In this document: positions 11,129 through 58,363 of the stretch, in pieces | Layout: each line of letters opens with the position of its first letter | Numbering within the stretch: the stretch's first letter is position 1 | DNA from: Amoebidium appalachense | Lineage: Eukaryota > Protista > Ichthyosporea | Reading direction: 5' to 3' | NCBI GenBank assembly: GCA_963693365.1 | Contig: CAVNZM010000012.1 | Coordinates: 1,674,001 to 1,738,000, forward strand | Length of the DNA: 64,000 bases | Translations under genes and position numbers: made by a program | Notes under the pieces: model-generated | Database searches by the model: none | Told to the model about the DNA's origin: nothing | What the model saw: only the letters and a program-made list of their open reading frames with translations

Positions 11129-11755
11129 GTCATTGCTGCGCTTTTTGAGGAATATTTGTCTGGGTTCGGGCCCGTCGAGGCACCCAAGACATGCACGTAT
11201 ATCTTGTATGGCATTGAAAACTTACACTTAGCCTCTCTTTACTCTACGCTTACTTGGCACATGCACATTCATCCACACCCGCATGTGTTATCACAAGCGG
11301 ACATGTATAAAACCACACCCCCACACCTACGTTCACATTCGCGTGAAAATCTTCCTTCAAACTCTTCCCTCGCGGTGCCTTCATCTCGCTTGCACTTTCA
11401 TCCGCTTTTGTGTGCGCACACAAACCTACACACACATGCACCACACCTCCATGCACACATCTCCACACACACATTTACTCTTACACACACACACACATGC
11501 ACGCACACACACACACATGCACATACAAACGAAACATCATTTCCCGCTTTTCCCGCCGCCCTGCACGCACGCGCGCACACACACTCATACACACACACAT
11601 GCACACCCTCCCCTCCGATGAATGGGTGAAACTCGGGTACTTTGGATGACCCGAGGATGGACTCTGTTTATTATGCATACTACTTTTTGTGGTTTGCACC
11701 CTTTATTATGTTGTCCGTTATGAATGATAACACCGTTTGTCTATAACACTTTTTT

Positions 11756-11812
<57 letters not shown>

Positions 11813-11947
11813 ACACACACACATGGCCCCCCCCCCTGAGGATGGGCTCTGCTTATTATGCATAGTCTTTATGTATGGCTTGCATTCTGCATCGTGTTAT
11901 CCGTTTTTTCTTGTGTACTTCGTACTTTTTGACGCATTCAACCCCCC

Positions 11948-11978
<31 letters not shown>

Positions 11979-12684: not shown

Positions 12685-13687
12685 ACACACAGTTTTTTCG
12701 GTTCCCCGTCCCTCTCCGCCTGTAAACAAAATGAAGAAGAATAGTGAACAAGCAGCACATGAAAAAGGAAAGGCTTGTTGTTTTCTTTGGGGTAGTAAGC
12801 AATACCGAAGCAAAAACACCTGCTAGTATTGTGTTGACCGCACAATTTTCCTTCACCTCAATTTTCTTAGGCGGTGGATACCAAGCTAATGCCACCCCCC
12901 CCCCCCCCCCCCCCCCCTCCCCTCCCTCCTTCTCTCCCTCCCTCCCTCCTCCCCCCCCCCCCCCCCCCCCCCTCCTCTCTCCCTCCCCTTCCTAAATTAT
13001 CACCCACCACAGGAAATGCGTGAAGCAGTAGCCAACGGTCCCAACGTGCACCCCGGAGCCACCCTAGTCGAGCACGAAGACGGTCGTGTGACGTCACTTG
13101 CAGCGCTGACCGTCGAGCAGAGACAGGCCCTGGCCAGCCAGCTGCTAACACCACCGGAGGGGGGTAGGACCAGACACATGCTGGGCAAGAAGGTGCACAG
13201 GCACATTAGGACCGGGGATGTGGTGCTGGCAAACAGGCAGCCTACACTGCATAAGCCGTCGATCATGGCGCACAAGTACGTGTGTGTACGAGTATCATAC
13301 GTGTGTGTGTGTGTGTGTGTGGTGGGGGGGTGGAGTGGGGAGTTGGGGGGGGGGGGGGGTAGGCGGAGGGGTAGTTGGGGGGGTGTGGGGGGGGGGGGGG
13401 GGGTGGGAACGAGGGGTGGTTTGTGTGTGTGGGGGGGGGGGAGGGAGGGGGGGGGGGGGGGGAAGGGGGAAGGGGGGTAGGTAGGAGAATAAACTGGTTT
13501 GGTGTGTGGTCGTGTGCGTGTGAGTGTGTGTATGCTTGTGTGTGTGTTTGTGTTGGTGGGCACGTCCATGTCCGTCTACGTGCATGTGTGTGTGTTGTGC
13601 TTTTCTGGTGGAGGGTTGATGTGTTGGGTTGACGGGTACATGTTTGTAATGGTGATGGTGAGGGAGGGAGGAGATATAGATGCGCGC

Positions 13688-13766
<79 letters not shown>

Positions 13767-13872
13767 CGCGCGGGCGTGCGCGTGTGTCGGTATATTGGTG
13801 TTTCGGATAAAGAAGGGGCCATATCATAGACCGACATAATTTTCGTTGTGGAGCTGTGGTGAAGGTTGGGTT

Positions 13873-13907
<35 letters not shown>

Positions 13908-15278
13908 GCGTATGGAGGGTTGATAGTTGTAGTTTTTGAGTGTGGTTACAAGTAGGGGAATTATGGTTGATAGTGAAGTTGAGTTCTGCCTTTGTCTGAT
14001 GAAGAACGTTTGAAGAGAAGAAAGAAAAGGGAGGTAGGATCTGGGAGCAAGAGGGTTATTGGTATTCGCTTGTTTTGTGTGACTGAGGTGTTTTGTGAAG
14101 AGGGTGTGGGTGGAGTATGTGTGTCAGAAAGCTTGTGTCTTGTCATTCGTTTCCTTTAGCGTTTGTGGTTGTTGTGTCCATCCCCTACTTTGGCATTTTG
14201 TTGTCTGGTATTATAGACTTACTCACACTCGCTCATCCACAACATTACCCATCCATCCCCCCCCCCCCACATCTTTACTTCCATGCAACCGGGCATGGTT
14301 GCTCTGTGTCGTGCATCTGTAAGCACATACGCGTTTGTCGCTGCACTGCATTAGTTTGCACATACATCTTCACCGTTTTGCTCACCTTGCTTGCATAAGC
14401 AACCCTGCTCGTCTTTGATCAAGACGGGTTGACCCACCCAAGTTCAGTTGATGCTGCTGTCTGAGTTGGAGCGTCGTATATACGCGGGCTAAGGGGTCGA
14501 AACTCAGACGCAATTGATGACTTGGGCCCTCCCTGAGGATGGGCTCTGCTTATGACGCATACTGTGCGCATGGCTGATGCTGCATACTTGAATGTTTGCC
14601 TTTGCATGTGTCCTGCACCATGCTTCTCATCGTGTATGCGTACTTCGTACTGTGTTCCGCATTCAAAACCCCCCCTGTCTTCTTTCAGAGGTGTCCTTTC
14701 AGGACAGACCACTGTGTGGAGACATCTTTACTTCCATGCAACCGGGCATGGTTGCTCTGTGTCGTGCATCTGTAAGCACATACGCGTTTGTCGCTGCACT
14801 GCATTAGTTTGCACATACATCTTCACCGTTTTGCTCACCTTGCTTGCATAAGCAACCCTGCTCGTCTTTGATCAAGACGGGTTGACCCACCCAAGTTCAG
14901 TTGATGCTGCTGTCTGAGTTGGAGCGTCGTATATACGCGGGCTAAGGGGTCGAAACTCAGACGCAATTGATGACTTGGGCCCTCCCTGAGGATGGGCTCT
15001 GCTTATGACGCATACTGTGCGCATGGCTGATGCTGCATACTTGAATGTTTGCCTTTGCATGTGTCCTGCACCATGCTTCTCATCGTGTATGCGTACTTCG
15101 TACTGTGTTCCGCATTCAAAACCCCCCCCCCCCCCCCCCCTTCCCCTCTCACTCTCCCATATTCCATTACCCATTCTACCCGTTCCCTTTCATGAACACA
15201 AGCACATGCACCCATGCACATACACAAAAACACATGTGAACATACATTTGCCCACAACACACAATGCATACACACACG

Positions 15279-15317
<39 letters not shown>

Positions 15318-16061
15318 ATACACACACACACGTACACGCAGGGTGCGCGTCCTCCCGGGGGGAAAAGACCCTCCGCATGCACTACGCCAACTGCAACACA
15401 TACAACGCCGACTTTGACGGAGACGAGATGAACGTCCACTTCCCCCAGTCCCAACAAGCGCGCGCCGAAGCGTACAACATTGCCAACACAGACAACCAAT
15501 ACCTGGTTCCTACAAGCGGAAAACCCCTTCGCGGTCTTATTCAGGATCACGTTGCTAGCGGCTCTGTTTTGACTGCGCGCACGACGCTTATGGACAGGAC
15601 GAGATACCAGCAGCTGGTGTTTACCGCCCTGCCCGACCTCCCTGGCCGGGTTCGAACCCTGCCTCCGTGTATCATCAAGCCCAAGTATGTATTTAATGGG
15701 TGGGGTGGGGGGGGGGGGGAGGGGGGGGGGAGGGGTGATGGTGTGGGGGGGGGGGGGGGGGGGGGCGATGGGGGGGGGGGGGGGGGGGGGGGACGGAGGA
15801 GAGGAGTATTGGCCTCCGGAGGAGACAGGGAGGGGGGGGGGGGGGGGGGGGGGGGCTAAATTCTTTTCATTAGCGGGGGATGATAACAGCTACTATCGGG
15901 GGGATGATAACGGTGCTTGGAAAAGGGACACCATAGGAAGAAGGGGGGGGGGGAGAGGGGGGGATAGTGTGCAGTTGGAGAGGCGTAAGTGTGGTTAGGG
16001 GGGGAGAGGGGGGGGGGGGGGGGGTGCAGTTGGAGAAGCAGGAATGTGTGTGTGTGTGGGG

Positions 16062-17805: not shown

Positions 17806-19202
17806 ACGTATACGCAAACACGTACACACATACACAAACACATGCACACACACATTTTCCCTTCCACCCCGCAGTGACGAGAAGATGGCCGGGCTGGATG
17901 CCACCATGAAGACCCGCCTCAACCAACTGACCAGCAACGTCATCAACGCCTGCCTCCCCGGTGCAGCCCAGAAACCCTTCCCAGAGAACAACCTCTCCCT
18001 CATGATCCAGTCCGGCGCAAAGGGTAGCAGCGTGAACTCTTCGCAGATTTCCTGCCTTTTGGGCCAACAGGAATTGGAGGGAAGACGTGTTCCCGTGATG
18101 GTCTCCGGTCGTTCCCTCCCTTCTTTCCTCCCTTACGACACGTCGGCACGGAGCGGGGGTTATGTCCGCGGTCGTTTCTTGACTGGAATCAAGCCACAGG
18201 AGTATTTCTTCCACTGTATGGCTGGGAGAGAGGGTCTTATCGACACGGCCGTCAAAACGGCGCGTTCCGGATACTTGCAGCGTTGTTTGATTAAGCATCT
18301 GGAGGGGTTGAGGGTGCACTATGATATGACGGTGAGGGATACGGACGGGAGCTGCGTTCAGTTTGCATACGGCGAGGACGGGTGTGACGTTACGCGGACG
18401 GCGTTTTTGGAGAAATTCGAGTTTTTAAACAAGAACGAAGCGGCTCTACAGGGGAAACTCAAGCCTCAGGAGGCCGTTCAGCATATGAACTACACTAAGG
18501 CGACGAAGCTTTTTCGGAAAGTCAAAAAGTCGATTTCGAAAACACCGGATTCCCCGCTCGACCCAGTCCTCGGGAGCCTGCGGCCGGATTTGTACCTGGG
18601 CGCGACGTCGGAGAGGTTCCATAAGAATCTGGAAAAACACGTGGAGAGTGGGAAGATGAGGGAGGAGGTGGAGAAGGATGCATTCAGGCTGCTCATGTGG
18701 CTCAAATACAGGTGGGAAACCCCTGGGGTTTGATTGCTAAAATGGAAAGTGGGTGTTGTTGGAATGGTGGGTGGGTGGGGAGTTTGGCTCAAAAAAAGTT
18801 GCGGTTTGCCATGTGTATGGAGTGGTGAAGTGGGTGGGTGAGTGGGAGTGTGGCTCAAGTATACATTTGGAAATTGCTAAATAAGGAATGTAGTTGTGGG
18901 TGGGTGGGGTGGTCAATGTTGCTCACGTACAAAGGGATTTTTCTTTTTTTCGGAAAGTGGTTGTAGGTAGGTGTGTTGGAATGGATTGAAATGGGTGTGG
19001 TTTTAGATGTTAATGGGCAGAGAGAATCTGTACGGGGTTTGTGCCCGCCGGGTGTGTGTGCGTGTGTTTGGGACTGGGGGGGGGGGGGGGGGGGGGGGGT
19101 TGGCTTTTTGCACCCTCGCCATCATACTTTGAGTGGATACATTTATAGTTCTAGAATAAAGTGTAATCACGTCTAACCACCAGCACAACCACTCCCTTCC
19201 CC

Positions 19203-19241
<39 letters not shown>

Positions 19242-19796
19242 ACACACGCGTGTTACTACCCTGCGGCGTGGGTCAAATCTCATATTTTCCCCTCTGATTA
19301 CGAATTCTGTGGCCTTCGGGACTTAATTCTTTTCAGCTGGTGTAGTATGTTAGCCAGGGAAGTATCGACTTAGGTATCGACGGGGGAGCTTCCTAGAAGC
19401 CCCGTCTCCTGAGTTCCTATCTATATTTTTCTTGCTTCTGCTTACTGCTGCAACTTTAACCCCCGGCCTTTCCCACTGCCCTTGCCTGCATAAGCAACCC
19501 TGCTCGTCTCTGATCAAGACGGGTGACCTACTCATGTTCAAGTGAAACAGTATCTGAGTTGGGTTTCGTTAACGAGGGGAATAGGTCGAAACTCGGGTAC
19601 TGTGGATGACGTGGGCCCCCCCTGAGGATGGGCTCTGCTTATTATGCATACTCTTTATGTATGGCTTGCATTCTGCATCGTGTTATCCGTTTGTTCTTGT
19701 GTACTTCGTACTTTTTGACGCATTCAAAACCCCCCCCCCACACACACACCCCTTCACACACACACACTCACACTCACACTCACACTCACACTCACA

Positions 19797-19856
<60 letters not shown>

Positions 19857-19897
19857 GCACCCCACCTGTCTCACCCCCTCTCCCTTCTCCCACAAAT

Positions 19898-19934
<37 letters not shown>

Positions 19935-20480
19935 ATCCTCACCACCACCAATAAACAAAAAAAAAAAAAAAAAAAAAAAAAAAAACATCTGCAGGGCATC
20001 CCTTGCCGAGCCAGGTGAGGCCGTTGGTCTTCTTGCTGCCCAGGGAGTGGGTGAGCCCTCTACCCAGATGACCCTCAACACGTTCCACTTTGCCGGGTTT
20101 GGCGCCATGAACGTCACACTGGGTATCCCCCGTCTTCGTGAAATTCTCATGACGGCCTCGGAGAAGATAAAAACCCCCGCCATGACTATCCCCCTCCTGC
20201 CCAACGTGAAAAACCCCACCCAGCGCGCGGAAAAACTGCGCCATCGCTTCACCCGGCTGACCCTCTCCGATGTGGTGTCGAGCGTTGCTGTCAAGGAGTG
20301 GCTGGAGGCACCCAAGGTGAAACTTCCTTCCGACACCCCCCCCCCCCAAACACCCCCCAAACACCCCCCAATGATGCATTCTACTTTCAATATGGTTTTA
20401 CATACCACTCAGGGTCCGTTTCCGTGTTGTTGATGGTGTAGATATGATTCGTGCTGGGGTACTGCATCCCCTTCACCCCC

Positions 20481-25998: not shown

Positions 25999-37973
<11,975 letters not shown>

Positions 37974-40478: not shown

Positions 40479-42272
40479 TCAAAAGAAGGCAAGGGCCTCA
40501 CCAGCCCTAAACAGTCCCTGTGGGTCTACCTTGTTTAGGTAGTCTACAAAACGTACCCTCTGTTCTTCCTTAAACACCCCCTGCATGCACTCACGCTGAA
40601 ACGGGCCCACCCTCCCATCCCCACCACGCCCAAAACAAAACAGTTTCGTGACTGCAGGCACACCGCCCATGTTTCTCAAAATAGTCTCAATTTCTAAAAA
40701 TGGCTCGCGCCAACGCCCGTCCAACCCATCACCAACACGAAGAAGGTTGAAAGCGAAATATTTCCCGGGGGAAAGTTGGAAAAGGGCCGCATTTCTATCC
40801 GTGTTGGTGATCTGCGCGTAACGCCACTCCGCCGCGCCGTTTACACGAAACGGTTTTTCCGCATTGTTTGAAAAGTTATTGTATTTCCGAACCCACGCCC
40901 TCCAGGCCTCGGCCACCTCGAAATCTTTATCGGCGGGGAACCAATATTCCATAAACTGACCGGGGGGGGCCTGTTCAAGCCACAACCCATCGTTTGCACC
41001 CAGGTTTTTGTTTGAGATGTATACCCCCGTACCGATGATGGATGTAAACATGAAACTTGTCGCGGCTACCTGTGTGTATTGGTTCTCCCCCGCCGTGAGC
41101 CCGAATGGAACCTGTTGTGGTTCGCCGCCCGTCACCTCAATATCCCCCAGGCGATTCTGCATTTCTTCATATCGGGAATTATACCACACGGGGGTCTGTC
41201 CGGCGGGCCGGCACTGTTTCGCTGTGTCCCCCCCACGGAAATTTATCGTGCGGAACGAGTTGCTCTCCAATACGGGGTCGTATGCCATGAAAATTTCACC
41301 GTACACGTCGCCTGACTCAGTGCCAAACTTGGGCCTGTTCACAATTTCGTCGAAGACCTTCTTGTTGTAAAACCCCGAATTTACCAACCGCTTATTCGAC
41401 TGCATGCAGAAAAAACTCCGGGGGACAACCTCAAGCTCCACCCCCGTTATGAGCGCAGGCAGGCCGAATCCGCTGCGGTGGAACGAAATTTCATGGGAAT
41501 TCTCAAGAACCCCCACCGTGCCGTTTGCCCACATAACCCGCAGAGCCGTGACGTGGTTGCTCACAAACGACCTGTTATGGTACCCCCCATGCACCGCATT
41601 TGCGATAATCCCACCAACCGTGAACGAAACACCATCGGTAACAGTCGGCAGGAAATAACCCTTAGGCCTAATATCCTGGTACAAATCTAGAAGAGACCTT
41701 CCAGCCCCGTACCTAACCTTTTTCCCTTGCGTGTCCAAACTGAAATCCCACGCCTTCTCTCCTCCCAAATCACCATGGCGATGACGAGCCAACGACACCA
41801 CCACCGTCTCCTTCTCATAATCTCGCGTAGTAACATAACCTGCGTCGGTGTGTTTTGAGCCCGTTGGTCGCACCTTACACCCGTTCTGCGCCGCCGTGGT
41901 CAAAATGTTTCTTAGCTGCTCGTCCGATGTAGGGAAGAGAACCGGAGCGGTGGTGGTGATGCCTGCATCTGTTCCTCCATACCAGTTGTGCCATGTGGGC
42001 CGCGTACCGTCCGGGTTGAATATTTGTCTGCAGTCGACAGTTGCACGTGATTTGTTGCCACTACGAGTTGTACGGTGAAGGAAAACACTGGAAAACGGTG
42101 AAGATTCCTCGGGACTCGAAACAGCTGCAGAATCTGATGCATCATGAAGGTGTGGAAGGGAAACGGCCTGGGAAACAGCAAGGAAAACAGAGAGTAGTAG
42201 GAAAAGGAGACACAAGAAGCCATTGGCTCTGTGCGCGAGCACCGTGACGAGTGGGAGAGCAGGCCCGGGCAT
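40479..42272 (-). CDS. Intronless secreted FAD-linked oxidase (FAD_binding_4, aldonolactone/gulonolactone-oxidase-like)
   Basis: Long clean ORF; likely start MPGPALP followed by a hydrophobic signal. Motifs TWHNWYG, P.S.EQL, KVRPTGSKHT (VRxxGSxH FAD-attachment-type motif), FTVGGIIANAVHG, GFGLPALITGVEL and C-terminal VDPQGLF. Confidence 0.85.
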   Translation of the reverse strand: MPGPALPLVTVLAHRANGFLCLLFLLLSVFLAVSQAVSLPHLHDASDSAAVSSPEESSPFSSVFLHRTTRSGNKSRATVDCRQIFNPDGTRPTWHNWYGGTDAGITTTAPVLFPTSDEQLRNILTTAAQNGCKVRPTGSKHTDAGYVTTRDYEKETVVVSLARHRHGDLGGEKAWDFSLDTQGKKVRYGAGRSLLDLYQDIRPKGYFLPTVTDGVSFTVGGIIANAVHGGYHNRSFVSNHVTALRVMWANGTVGVLENSHEISFHRSGFGLPALITGVELEVVPRSFFCMQSNKRLVNSGFYNKKVFDEIVNRPKFGTESGDVYGEIFMAYDPVLESNSFRTINFRGGDTAKQCRPAGQTPVWYNSRYEEMQNRLGDIEVTGGEPQQVPFGLTAGENQYTQVAATSFMFTSIIGTGVYISNKNLGANDGLWLEQAPPGQFMEYWFPADKDFEVAEAWRAWVRKYNNFSNNAEKPFRVNGAAEWRYAQITNTDRNAALFQLSPGKYFAFNLLRVGDGLDGRWREPFLEIETILRNMGGVPAVTKLFCFGRGGDGRVGPFQRECMQGVFKEEQRVRFVDYLNKVDPQGLFRAGEALAFF

Positions 42273-43647
42273 TGTGATGTACAGGGGGGGTGAGGGCGGG
42301 AACCCACGAACTGAAATAGTTTTCTTGGCAAAAGAACTGCAGAAGACCTCGGCCACAGTGGTTGTTCTAGCAGTCCACACACATGAAGCTTTATACCTGC
42401 ACAGCGTAAAAACGCCCCAACATGTACTGTCAAATTGATGTTTGTGGCGAAAATGCTGTGACTACAGAGCTCCATGTTGATTGACACTTGTACAAGACCA
42501 CTGGTCGAACACGTATACACTAGCATTGGCATCAAAGGAGAACTTCTATGATAACCTAGCGGTAGACTATCACTAATATATTGTGCGTCGCTGGGTTTAA
42601 TGTTCTTTCACACACATAAACGATGTTGATGTGGATGTCTATGGTGACAGAGACTAGTAGCATATATTTGTACGTGACTACTGTTTGGACTAGGTAATAG
42701 TATGTGAGGTAGCCTACTGTGTAAATCAGCCGTTGAACTGTGGCTCGTTAAGGACGAGGGATTACATATGTAGTATGCACATATGATGAGTGAAAAAACG
42801 AGGACAGAAGACATGATGAATATTGCACAAGGCCTAAGAAGGCTGATAATGTTACCAATTAGCAGCCCCGTTGTCACGTTGTGGTCCGAGTCTGGGAATC
42901 ATCTAATGACACACAAGCCTTGCAATTGCTTAATATATCGATAAAGTCTATATAAGATTTGCGATTACCTTTGGCATGTCCTAAAGCTTTAATAGTACGC
43001 GCCGGACGAACGAGTGTTCTTTTTTTTCGACAGTTAACAAGTGGGTGCCACATGATAGTGGCTCCAGTTCAAGGATTGAGTAGGAACTCCGTCCCAGAGC
43101 CCTGAGCGCTACCGGTATACGTATACGTAAGAAAGCCTGCTAGAGCCGGCACAGAGCCAAGTTTCATTGCATGCGTATTTTGCACACACACGTGTGTAAA
43201 AACTCGAAATTAGGCATTTCTGCTATGACGGCACTGAAAGAACCACACACCCCAAACTGGTGTAGCGAGGCCTCTGACTTGATTCTCACAAAAAGCGACG
43301 AGCGAAACGATTGGGGTTGCCAGAAAGGGCATCATTGGCTAAGGCTATAAGCCAATGATGATTTGGTTTCTATGGTTATATATGGATATATTATCATACA
43401 CAACATTTACCGATTACGCAACCTTGCCGGTACAGGATTCCTTCTCCAATCTACCGATTGATGTTTTAGCCAAAAATGGAAAGAACGGCAAAGCCAAAAA
43501 TAGCAAGCGGTGCACAGTGGGCCGCTGCCCCCGGGGGGCCCGGGCCATGGGCCAGCAAGTCAAGTGGAGAACTGACAGTTCGCTTACTTTTTCATTTTTT
43601 TTTTCCTACCCCAGGCCCTGAAATTAATGATTTCAATTCAGAGAAAC

Positions 43648-44961
43648 ATGGCTAGTGCACAAGCACTCTCACAACTGCTAGAAGATGTGCAAAGGGAAAA
43701 CGTGAAATTTCTAGAGGTAGCTTCGACAAGCGCACAGCGGGCCATTGATGCAGCCAGGGTAGAGGCGGAAAAGTTGGAGAAGGAAAGACGCGAGTTTGAG
43801 AAAGAGAAGGAGAAATGGAAGAAAGATACAGAGCTGTGGATGGAGGAAGAGCGTGCGAAGATAGAGAGGGAGAGAGAGGAATGGGCGGTGGAAAGAGAAA
43901 TGGAAAGAGCGGAACTTGACGAAGAAAAAGAATTGTGGAGAGAAAGGGCGGAGAGAGAGCTGATAGAACAAAAGGCGGCTTTTCAAGTTGAAACGAAAAG
44001 TTTTCAGGAGGAAAAGGCTCACTTTAAAGAACTGGCGGAAAGGGTAGATAGCGTGTTTGTGAGCGCACCCATTGTTAAACTTAACGTTGGAGGGGTGGTG
44101 TTTTCTACAAGCCTAGCGACCCTAAAAGCTGCCAAAGGGTCCTTTTTTGATGTCATGTTTTCTGGGCACAACACGAAGGACTTGTTGCCGCAGGAGGATG
44201 GAAGCTTCTTCATCGACGCCGACCCAACGTTGTTTCCTTACGTGCTGCAATACTTACGCTGCGTCCAAAAACGCGTTGATTTTCCCATAGATGCGGTTCC
44301 AAGCTCGGTACTCAATTCACTCCTCCTCGAAGCTACTTTCTACTCACTCAACCTATATGGAAACAAGCTGGACTGTTTAAAGGAGTCGGCTATTCTGCAG
44401 CCGTTCCAACGCCACTCACACGCACTCGTCAAGTTTTTAAAGCAAGACGGCATTTCTACTGATTGCACTTTCCCGCTATTGTACCGTGGGTCACGTGACG
44501 GTTGGCGTGCAGTCGATTTCCATTCCCATTGCGACAACAAAGGGCCTACGGTGGTTCTCATTCGTTCCGTCGAAGGATACATATTCGGCGGCTACACGGA
44601 AGACGAGTGGGATTCGAGCGGGGATACCAAATGTGGGCGCTCATTCCTGTTCTCACTTACGCGTCCTAACGGTGGAGCACCTTCCAAATTAGGAAAGGGG
44701 GGCCAGCAGGGGACCTTCCAGAGCATCTATTGTAGCAGTTACTGTGGCCCCGCGTTTTTGGAGGATGTGTGCGTGCGGGATCAACCCAATGCGAGTGCGT
44801 GCAGTACATCGGCGCTTGGTGTTTACTATGATTTGCCATCGGATTGTGGAGGGGGTGTTGGATGTGTGTCGTGCGGTTATTTGCCGGGGGGTGCAGCGAG
44901 CTATTTGGCCGGTGCACCGAACTTCGCTGTTGGTGAATTGGAGGTGTTGCAGGTGGTCTGA
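43648..44961 (+). CDS. Intronless coiled-coil + BTB/POZ (KCTD T1-type) + TLDc protein
   Basis: IVKLNVGGVVFSTSLATL...SFFDVMFSG...DGSFFIDADPTLFPYVLQYLR (BTB_2). LLYRGSRDGWRAVDFHSHCDNKGPTVVLIRS...IFGGYT...SFLFSL...GPAF...ELEV (TLDc). Confidence 0.93.
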   Translation: MASAQALSQLLEDVQRENVKFLEVASTSAQRAIDAARVEAEKLEKERREFEKEKEKWKKDTELWMEEERAKIEREREEWAVEREMERAELDEEKELWRERAERELIEQKAAFQVETKSFQEEKAHFKELAERVDSVFVSAPIVKLNVGGVVFSTSLATLKAAKGSFFDVMFSGHNTKDLLPQEDGSFFIDADPTLFPYVLQYLRCVQKRVDFPIDAVPSSVLNSLLLEATFYSLNLYGNKLDCLKESAILQPFQRHSHALVKFLKQDGISTDCTFPLLYRGSRDGWRAVDFHSHCDNKGPTVVLIRSVEGYIFGGYTEDEWDSSGDTKCGRSFLFSLTRPNGGAPSKLGKGGQQGTFQSIYCSSYCGPAFLEDVCVRDQPNASACSTSALGVYYDLPSDCGGGVGCVSCGYLPGGAASYLAGAPNFAVGELEVLQVV

Positions 44962-48200: not shown

Positions 48201-48916
48201 CTAAAAAGGCAGGTGATTGAAAATAGTGCCAGGGGGGGTTATGATTGGCCGACGCTCTTCTGCAGACATTCTGTATTGGGGAATGATGGCGGCGGCGGGG
48301 GGGGGGGGTTTGAATGCGGAACACAGTACGAAGTACGCATACACGATGAGAAGCATGGTGCAGGACACATGCAAAGGCAAACATTCAACTATGCAGCATC
48401 AGCCATGCGCACAGTATGCGTCATAAGCAGAGCCCATCCTCAGGGAGGGCCCAAGTCATCAATTGCGTCTGAGTTTCGACCCCTTAGCCCGCGTATATAC
48501 GACGCTCCAACTCAGACAGCAGCATCAACTGAACTTGGGTGGGTCAACCCGTCTTGATCAAAGACGAGCAGGGTTGCTTATGCAAGCAAGGTGAGCAAAA
48601 CGGTGAAGATGTGTGTGCAAACTAATGCAGTGCAGCGACAAACGCGTGTGCTTACAGATGCACGACACAGAGCAACCATGCCCGGGGGGGGGGGGGGGGG
48701 GGGGGTTGGTTGGTTAGGGTAAGTAAAAATGGACTAGGTAGGAGTGGGTAAGGGAAGAACGAGGCTGTGTCGGTATGTGTTCGTGTGTTCGTGTGTCCGT
48801 ATAGTGTGTCTGTCGTGTGCCTGTGTCGTGTGCCGTGTGAGTGTGCATGTGTGCAAGTGCATGTGTTTTAATGAATGCATGTACGTGTGTGCATGCGTGC
48901 ACGTGTGTGTGTGTGT

Positions 48917-56918: not shown

Positions 56919-58363
56919 CCCTTTCTTCAACCCCGCTCCACACTACAAATAGTATCTTCTTTCCTTGATGCCCCGGTGATCACTCGCTCCAATTCGTCCC
57001 ACCCACGAACATAGCTGACCATTCCCTTAACATATGCAGTACCGAATTCAAGTGACCCATACACCAAGGTGCCCATCCCGATGTTTTCTGCCCACGGGGG
57101 TGGTGGTACCCATCTCTCTCCAGTTACAACCTCAAATCCCTCATGGCAACCCACCCCCACGCTCCTGTCCGTGTCCCCTGCACGCATGGGCGATAGGAGC
57201 CCCTCACACCCACCAACAAACCTGAGGCCAACGTTCCAACCATATCCATCTGTTCAACGTTCACCGGAACAGGAGTTTTTGCAAAGTCAAGTTGACCAAA
57301 CGAATTTCCTTCTTTCACACACACTGAGCGGTGATGATGTGAAGTCTGAAACGATGGGTGCCAGATTCGATCTCATTCAGAGCCATTATGAGCATTTAAC
57401 AGAAACTGTATTGACACCAGACTACGACCGACATTACGAGTCCACCGGTGCCACAGACTCGGATGCATTCCTTCGGGATTTGAACAACGTCAACGATTTG
57501 TTGAAGCTGCAGGGGGTATTGGAACATTTACTTGCATCTAACGCAACACCGTTTTCGAACTCGGGTAAGACTTCAGATAATTTGACCCTTGGCAAAAAGG
57601 GGTCAGTGTCGCCCATTTGTGCTGGGATGAACAACATGGGGATAAACGATGACGGCAGTCTGTCCCCATCCACCCCCGGGGCGAACATGGGATATCACAG
57701 CGCCTCCATTTCACCGAACCAAATCGGAAAAACCAACACGAATTACGGGAATTTCGGGGACAAAGGTGCTAGCGTCGACAATATCAGGCTGCTAGTGCCG
57801 ACAGCAAAACCCGCCATCGGCCGGCGATATTCGGAGCCGCCACAGCTTTTGTTTGACGAACATGAGAATTCCGGTGAGGATTATCGGCAGTGCAAACAGG
57901 AATACCCTCCCCCAGGAAGTCTTCCGCCGGTACCCCGATTCAATGTTCCCCCGCCTAATCAGCAAAACTATGATGCGCCCGTTTCTACAGGCCGGTGGCA
58001 GGAACCCGTTCGGGCCGACCCGAAAGACGAGGAGAGTAAGCAGAGGTATGTCGAGTCGTTGCTGGGACGGTATAGAAGGACCCCGGCACAGGACCGACCA
58101 CATGATGAAGGTTTGAACCCCCCCCTCCCCCCCCCCTCCCCCCGGAGCGAAGGATGGGCTCTACTTATCTTTCATACTAAGGGAGTAATTACAATACTCT
58201 ATACCCTAAAGAATTAATTCGAGTCTCTTAAGAGCCATCGCTCTTAGAGTAGTTGCACCTACTCTTTCCTATTCTTAGTACTATATGATGTGTACTCATG
58301 TGAGCACTTTGCCTTATGTTGTCGATCATCAAGAGTTTTTTTAGAAGCTGTGACCCATTCTGT

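Follow-up and report, generated by a model that had tools for sequence, protein, structure and literature searches.

A complete hammerhead core in rearranged strand order within a likely Penelope-like retroelement repeat

The closest described systems are the type-SGC and type-CSG hammerheads of Eckert et al. 2023, both of which cleave, the SGC form as a monomer (PMC10085705). In that paper these forms are about 80 nt long and come only from metatranscriptomes and metagenomes, and a distance paradox is remarked on in some natural SGC ribozymes. Block C, comprising a stem I strand, CUGAnGA and a stem II strand, is assumed there never to be interrupted by more than 1-2 nt (PMC10085705). The hammerheads of Penelope-like elements (PLEs) keep an extra base between positions 9 and 10.1, are weak in vitro and often need a dimer (PMC4209133). 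Among PLEs, Craig et al. 2021 give Naiad and most Chlamys elements as lacking canonical hammerheads and list eight 'HHR_half_core' cases with core halves 35-50 nt apart (PMC8557442).

We describe a structured RNA from a repeat in a 64,000-nt window of eukaryotic DNA, the window being the whole stretch analysed. The RNA carries a complete hammerhead core in rearranged strand order. It is likely self-cleaving, and would cut unit-length RNAs from tandem transcripts of a likely Penelope-like (Naiad-type) retroelement. The structure is genuine and under selection as RNA, and we describe it as a putative new topology of the hammerhead ribozyme.

Hammerhead core, strand order and overall fold

The repeat occurs as two subfamilies, A and B, which are 81% alike over 179 nt. 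The first-pass annotation had drawn the RNA as a set of helices with one crossing pair, and all of these are present where it placed them: P1 (7 bp), the 8-bp hairpin 14407-29, CCCAAGU/ACUUGGG, GUCUGAGU/ACUCAGAC and the inner hairpin, together with the crossing pair 14431-35/14494-98. The latter has its B counterpart at 19525-30/19582-87, with the C-G to U-A change. The plus strand folds better than the minus strand in A (-61.9 vs -57.6 kcal/mol) and in B (-54.5 vs -44.0 kcal/mol). The first-pass annotation had overlooked stem I, as well as the k-turn motif and the hammerhead core. Its statement that the RNA could not be matched to a hammerhead is incorrect, as no core base is missing and all of them line up with the three stems. 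The earlier idea of a new ribozyme, selected as RNA, is thus supported with respect to the ribozyme and fails with respect to class, for the novelty lies in the topology of a hammerhead. An intron-encoded ncRNA, also proposed, is unlikely because the RNA is found in a repeat that is dispersed and represented by thousands of variant contigs.

The U16.1-A15.1 pair terminates the helix GUCUGAGU/ACUCAGAC; U17 lies to one side of it and G12-A13-A14 to the other. In both subfamilies G12-A13-A14-A15.1 lies between stems II and III, A15.1 pairs with U16.1, and H17 is not G. The segment C3-U4-G5-A6-N7-G8-A9 follows stem I directly and reads CUGAGGA in A and B. Stems I, II and III pair over 4, 5 and at least 8 bp in A and over 3, 6 and 13 bp in B, and stem II is closed by a G-C pair in agreement with R10.1-Y11.1. 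Between A and B both partners change in stem I (A-U to G-C) and in stem II (C-G to U-A); stem I of B is GGG/CCC and has lost the fourth pair. By analogy with known hammerheads, cleavage is predicted after positions 14467 (A1), 14920 (A2) and 19560 (B). Judged from the sequence, the hammerhead fold is highly probable, and genuine self-cleavage of the element RNA is probable.

Read 5' to 3', the order is the stem II 5' strand followed by blocks S, G and C. This is the cyclic class of the SGC and CSG ribozymes, opened between A9 and G10.1. A type-SGC stem II strand would lie within 1-2 nt after CUGAnGA; here the covarying strand lies upstream. The arrangement with an interrupted A9/G10.1 was not found described in the literature searched, which lay mostly outside subscription journals; the SGC variant alignments of Eckert et al. 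may hold related forms.

Table 1. Predicted RNA features and repeat copies in the window
Feature	Positions	Strand	Details
Whole structured RNA, A1	14395..14553	+	Closing helix P1 14395-401/14547-53, 7 bp
Junction domain between A9 and G10.1	14403..14429	+	Helix CCC 14403-05/GGG 14541-43, then hairpin 14407-29
Stem II 5' strand	14431..14435	+	G10.1 = 14431; pairs 14494-98, C11.1 = 14498; closing pair G14431-C14498
Helix P4 5' strand	14437..14446	+	9 bp plus U bulge, pairs 14518-26
k-turn motif	14447..14452	+	3-nt bulge 14447-49; G.A 14450/14517, A.G 14451/14516, U.U 14452/14515
Stem III 5' strand	14453..14467	+	Ends U16.1 (14466), U17 (14467); GUU triplet
Stem I 5' strand GGAG	14468..14471	+	Pairs CUCC 14529-32; second pseudoknot
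Palindrome, perfect 10-nt	14475..14484	+	Stem I-stem II linker of A
C11.1, G12-A13-A14-A15.1, stem III 3' strand	14498..14514	+	G12 to A15.1 = 14499-502
CUGAGGA core (C3-A9) plus extra U after A9	14533..14540	+	CUGAGGA at 14533-39; in B at 19622-28
Whole structured RNA, B	19490..19642	+	
k-turn motif of B	19541-46 with 19604-06	+	Third pair A.G
Palindrome, perfect 10-nt, different sequence	19566-75	+	Linker of B
Repeat copy A1, subfamily A	14269..14675	+	C-run both sides; in RPA1 intron 13276-15341; RNA starts 14395
Repeat copy A2	14722..15128	+	Tandem to A1, 453-nt period; RNA starts 14848
Repeat copy A3	48301..48685	-	5'-truncated, C-run flanked; RNA starts 48581; predicted cleavage site 48509/48508
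Repeat copy B, subfamily B	19248..19727	+	5'-truncated; in RPA1 intron 18712-19994; RNA starts 19490
Two subfamily B 3' fragments	11620-11719, 11830-11953	+	5'-truncated or decayed, beside C and CA runs

The core was evaluated against 20,000 dinucleotide shuffles per subfamily with a descriptor (hammerhead core; stems I, II and III of at least 3, 4 and 4 bp) that was written after the sequence had been seen. In any strand order it matches 29/20,000 (A) and 36/20,000 (B) shuffles, and in the observed order two of the 20,000 for each subfamily. When at least 3 bp in stem I, 5 bp in stem II and 8 bp in stem III are required, there is no match among the 20,000 shuffles of A or the 20,000 of B. Applied to both strands of the whole window, the descriptor matches only the four full copies. 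Two full-length sequence types, A and B, were compared; in a MAFFT alignment stem I of B falls in the wrong place, and the pairs were instead listed by their positions.

A strong Rfam match, which the first-pass annotation had named as grounds for withdrawing its proposal, was not obtained. Subfamily A has no match at E <= 10, and B shows a partial match to Hammerhead_1 (14.2 bits, gathering score 34, E 2.9) that falls exactly on stem II plus GAAAC. Across the whole window 114 matches reach E <= 1; the element carries none of them, and no match attains its gathering score. Rfam hammerhead types I-III call for a nested three-way junction and a score at the gathering threshold; the element falls short of that score, and its stems I and II cross. 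A box C/D snoRNA was rejected, the only match being sR47 (10.5 bits, E 6.7) with the motif internal and not terminal. HDV, twister, pistol, SECIS, U3 and SAM-I were dropped, as their motifs are lacking and Rfam gives no support. The tandem G.A motif resembles box C/D and SECIS cores; the unpaired AA on the 5' side of the apical loop, a SECIS feature, is absent.

The nested fold has modest z-scores of -2.2 (A) and -1.4 (B), and in the nested ensemble of B the mean pair probability is 0.06 for the CUCAUGU helix and 0.30 for the first hairpin. Nested energy alone is therefore insufficient for the case. In the complete fold, P1 closes a three-way junction in which A9 is followed by a U and a short helix, and G10.1 is preceded by the hairpin 14407-29 with its self-complementary loop UGAUCA. 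P4 connects stems I and II, at their tops, with the arm, and it has the same length and bulge in B and a double change from A-U to U-G between the subfamilies. Both A and B have 16 pair steps from the core to the k-turn bulge and 9 bp plus the U bulge beyond, though their sequences differ. At the level of sequence, a 3-nt bulge followed by G.A and A.G pairs between flanking helices is found in both, in agreement with the k-turn consensus.

In k-turn-assisted pseudoknots such as those of the SAM-I and c-di-GMP-II riboswitches, a bent arm allows a loop to pair back towards the junction. The element differs from these riboswitches in having no Rfam match, and its docked parts are the predicted catalytic core and not a ligand pocket. 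The linker palindromes arise in 85/5,000 (A) and 25/5,000 (B) linker shuffles, and their computed duplex energies of -11 to -12 kcal/mol compare with -2 to -3 kcal/mol for the hairpins.

With the SGC and CSG forms the element shares the core, S before G before C, and two core pseudoknots (PMC10085705). P4 corresponds approximately to the interaction helix of SGC forms in joining the free sides of stems I and II. Unlike in those forms, the strand for stem II is found some 100 nt upstream with a three-way junction closing the gap, both P4 strands enter stem III through a k-turn, and the RNA is a 160-nt unit of a eukaryotic genomic repeat.

The repeat, its setting and its variation

The window holds four full copies and two 3' fragments (Table 1), and the full core is absent from both fragments. 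A1, A2 and B lie in sense orientation within GT-AG introns of the gene for the RNA polymerase I largest subunit (RPA1), whose identity to its database matches is at most 63%. The copies have a common 3' endpoint, before a C run, and variable 5' starts, after C or CA runs. The head-to-tail joint of A1 and A2 recurs in other contigs of the public run X1. Naiad/Chlamys elements are marked by an ORF with an N-terminal GIY-YIG domain and a PLE reverse transcriptase; no reverse transcriptase family was found among the 19 ORFs of the window. Since the repeat is tandem, 5'-truncated and flanked by C/CA, it is likely Penelope-like; on this anatomy and the shared RNA fold, we consider PLE parentage the favoured, if not firm, assignment. 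Partial tandems, 5' truncation, microsatellite targets and no clear target duplication, traits described for Naiad/Chlamys, are all found here. Naiad targets are given there as (TA)n, while the element is flanked by C and CA runs, like Chlamys (PMC8557442).

About 46 nt at 14676-14721, with a small hairpin inside, occur only between the tandem copies A1 and A2 and resemble the one-sided tail described for PLE tandems. The end before 19248 is loose: 16 contigs of X1 continue upstream with shared sequence, which in one frame reads like the end of an ORF with two stops and is a lead to the parent element. At 58151-58178, after a C run, the 3' portion of the RNA has a short, decayed match. Elsewhere the window contains exons of an M60/enhancin-like peptidase (30706-33362; PF17291, PF13402), a FAD_binding_4 oxidase ORF (40482-42461, minus strand) and a BTB plus TLDc protein (43576-44958, plus strand). 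Many of its introns are G/GT-rich in their 5' halves and C/CA-rich in their 3' halves, an asymmetry that gives inverted repeats, long but imperfect, and numerous spurious miRNA matches.

The repeat is present in 20 public runs from five coded organisms and seven studies. In X1, possibly the run from which the window itself derives, 14,834 contigs fall on A and 10,259 on B, where contig depth is not a copy number. Variants were taken, unphased, from contigs at a minimum of 80% identity. In subfamily A, no listed variant at 2% or more of family contigs hits a core base. Variable positions number 6/159 inside the A RNA and 18/257 in the flanks, a depletion that is not significant (P 0.20), and some of the A-RNA variants are spill-over from B. 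Among the variants listed for B, the core bases that vary are C3 and U4, at 0.2-1.8%. In B stem II, the variants 19529 U>C and 19583 A>G, carried by 88 and 96 contigs of X1, together would restore a pair if in phase. Three further variants of B, at 19495, 19532 and 19595, preserve pairing. The variant 19521 G>A, at 11% in X4, disrupts a hairpin pair if 19505 stays as it is. One joint contig of X1 (depth 24) carries different letters across 19528-19625, with GGUC-GAAAC, the G.A motif and the C block kept and a shorter arm; it is possibly a third subfamily or a deletion form.

Relatives among Naiads and in a metagenome

The supplement of Craig et al. was searched for YCGAAAC plus six CUGAnGA-type strings, a search that misses motifs split by line ends. 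By eye, the strand order of the element is found at 7/47 YCGAAAC places, all in Naiads and representing four independent types (PMC8557442). The seven consensuses are Bfor, three near-identical ones in parts 10-11 (apparently Acropora, from the file order), one in part 12, Obim and Ovul. In each, again by eye, A9 is followed by a helix and G10.1 preceded by a hairpin. In some the hairpin is bounded by GCUC...GGGU, and two (Obim and Ovul) carry the k-turn motif. In these Octopus Naiads the k-turn is 5 bp from the core with its bulge on the 3' strand, as against 16 steps and a 5'-strand bulge in the element, and the element further has its 10-nt linker palindrome. The fold itself is undescribed in the available portions of the Naiad paper, and none of the Chlamys places examined in the supplement shows it (PMC8557442). 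In File S5, near part 16, the 3' end of the consensus before Naiad_Lpol reads by eye as type CSG, with CUGACGA, one U, a stem II strand, the site and GAAAC. Among Naiads, then, one and the same non-circular cycle may be opened in several ways.

A further relative comes from a metagenome. General patterns returned at least 360 loci (8/64 metagenome parts; 16/64 and 61/64 viral parts), of which 31 passed a loose descriptor and one, L127, is convincing. L127 (1-555, minus strand, core near 254) has the same four-piece order, a GUC site, stems of 6/7/5, a P4 of 9 and a long arm; by eye it likewise shows a helix following A9 and a hairpin ahead of G10.1, with other stem sequences. The ORF upstream of its core has 12 matches, 54-98% identical, with no Pfam family among them. 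The next-best loci, L338 and L352 (stems 5/5/4), were left as chance. Patterns specific to the family gave eight viral matches, none with the fold, and no metagenome match.

Geometry, alternative readings and significance

In the proposed mechanism, the site-bearing apical loop would dock on the strands at the P4 foot, forming stems I and II as two pseudoknots, and the three-way junction would hold A9 and G10.1 together with no direct bond. By analogy with established hammerhead chemistry, the attack on the following phosphate would come from the 2'-OH of U17; G12 would serve as base and G8 as acid. Cutting would leave 2',3'-cyclic phosphate and 5'-OH ends, and two cuts in an A1-A2 tandem transcript would release a 453-nt monomer with ligatable ends. 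This monomer could close into a circle and serve as template for reverse transcription, the model put forward for PLE hammerheads (PMC4209133). Like those hammerheads and the retrozymes, the element shows tandem retroelement repeats, G10.1-C11.1, an extra base between 9 and 10.1 and palindromes, dimer-dependent cleavage being described for theirs (PMC4209133; bioRxiv 10.64898/2026.07.22.740005). The minimal PLE hammerheads are type I with a tiny stem III, whereas stem III here is long and stable, and the exchange we propose is loop-to-base.

A rigid-arm estimate, with assumed rise and k-turn angles, places the top of stem II 67-70 Å and the P4 foot 25 Å from the k-turn. The resulting gap in the monomer is 47-61 Å, beyond the span of a 1-nt linker, and the monomer fold thus needs a partner or partial melting. 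We suggest, with slightly more doubt than conviction, that the long arm cannot reach its own base, and that loop and base come from two copies held by palindromic loops. Two copies docking loop to base would remove the distance gap, and dimer dependence would keep single intronic copies slow. Both subfamilies share the self-complementary hairpin loop, and the palindrome of the docking loop differs in each. The long-arm relatives (L127 and the three near-identical Naiads of parts 10-11) lack long palindromes, a point against generalising the dimer step. Points against the four-piece ribozyme itself are a stem I of only 3-4 bp, the GUU triplet and the competition of stems I and II with nested folds. 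A broader proposal is speculative and more probably wrong than right. In it, this fourth opening of the non-circular hammerhead, inside the catalytic block, would be the hidden ribozyme of a broad Penelope-like group; here it would form an obligate two-copy ring with k-turned arms docked loop-to-base and cross-braced by the palindromes, such that only tandem or paired transcripts would cut and lone intronic copies would spare the host pre-mRNA.

The same four-piece hammerhead may instead act as a monomer, a variant of the best explanation that differs only in the dimer step and that we regard as a tentative but serious competitor. P4 or the distal arm would be partly melted, or the geometry would fall outside the rigid estimate, with the k-turn, alone or bound by an L7Ae-family protein, setting the off state or the bend. 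P4 is weak in B, and short-arm Naiads whose k-turn or loop lies 4-7 bp away from the core seem compatible with a monomer. The same distance paradox is noted for some natural SGC ribozymes (PMC10085705). The lengths and pairs of P4 and the k-turn are, however, kept in both A and B, and both linkers hold perfect palindromes of different sequence.

It is unlikely that the RNA is a non-catalytic retroelement signal, for RT or protein binding or dimerisation, descended from a hammerhead that no longer cuts. Such a signal would suit the k-turn, the palindromes and the presence of sense copies within introns of an essential gene, and PLE hammerheads are weak in vitro (PMC4209133). Yet the core bases are all kept in two subfamilies 81% alike, in the Naiads and in L127, while stem sequences change. 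An ordinary type-SGC hammerhead is more doubtful still; stem II would be 14542-47/14493-98 with a 2-nt insertion after A9, and the GACCC pairing alternative or inhibitory. The descriptor does find this stem (6 bp in A, 4 bp in B), and SGC ribozymes need no partner to cleave (PMC10085705). It is G-U rich and weaker than the covarying stem (-5.1 vs -7.1 kcal/mol in A, -2.2 vs -6.7 kcal/mol in B), however, and in B it drops pairs at the very point of the compensatory change in the GACCC pairing. Nor can the Naiad relatives or L127 form it, since the bases after CUGAUGA cannot make stem II. That the RNA has no relation to hammerheads, being a new ribozyme class, snoRNA, SECIS or riboswitch, or that the fold arose by chance in a repeat, is very improbable: the modest nested z-scores and the lack of an Rfam match at gathering score would fit it, but the shuffle counts and the recurrence of the same order in unrelated sequences speak against it.

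If the four-piece hammerhead does cleave, it would break the rule, as stated by Eckert et al., that the CUGAnGA block cannot be split, and it would be a non-circular hammerhead in a eukaryotic genome (PMC10085705). It would also explain why descriptor searches called Naiads hammerhead-less despite half cores 35-50 nt apart (PMC8557442). For switches, a hammerhead that carries a grafted domain at A9/G10.1 together with a putatively protein-binding k-turn would offer a new scaffold. The role of ribozymes in PLE mobility could then be tested on an RNA of 160 nt whose cut site is exactly predicted. What this locus contributes is the long-arm, palindrome-bearing form together with the family variation.
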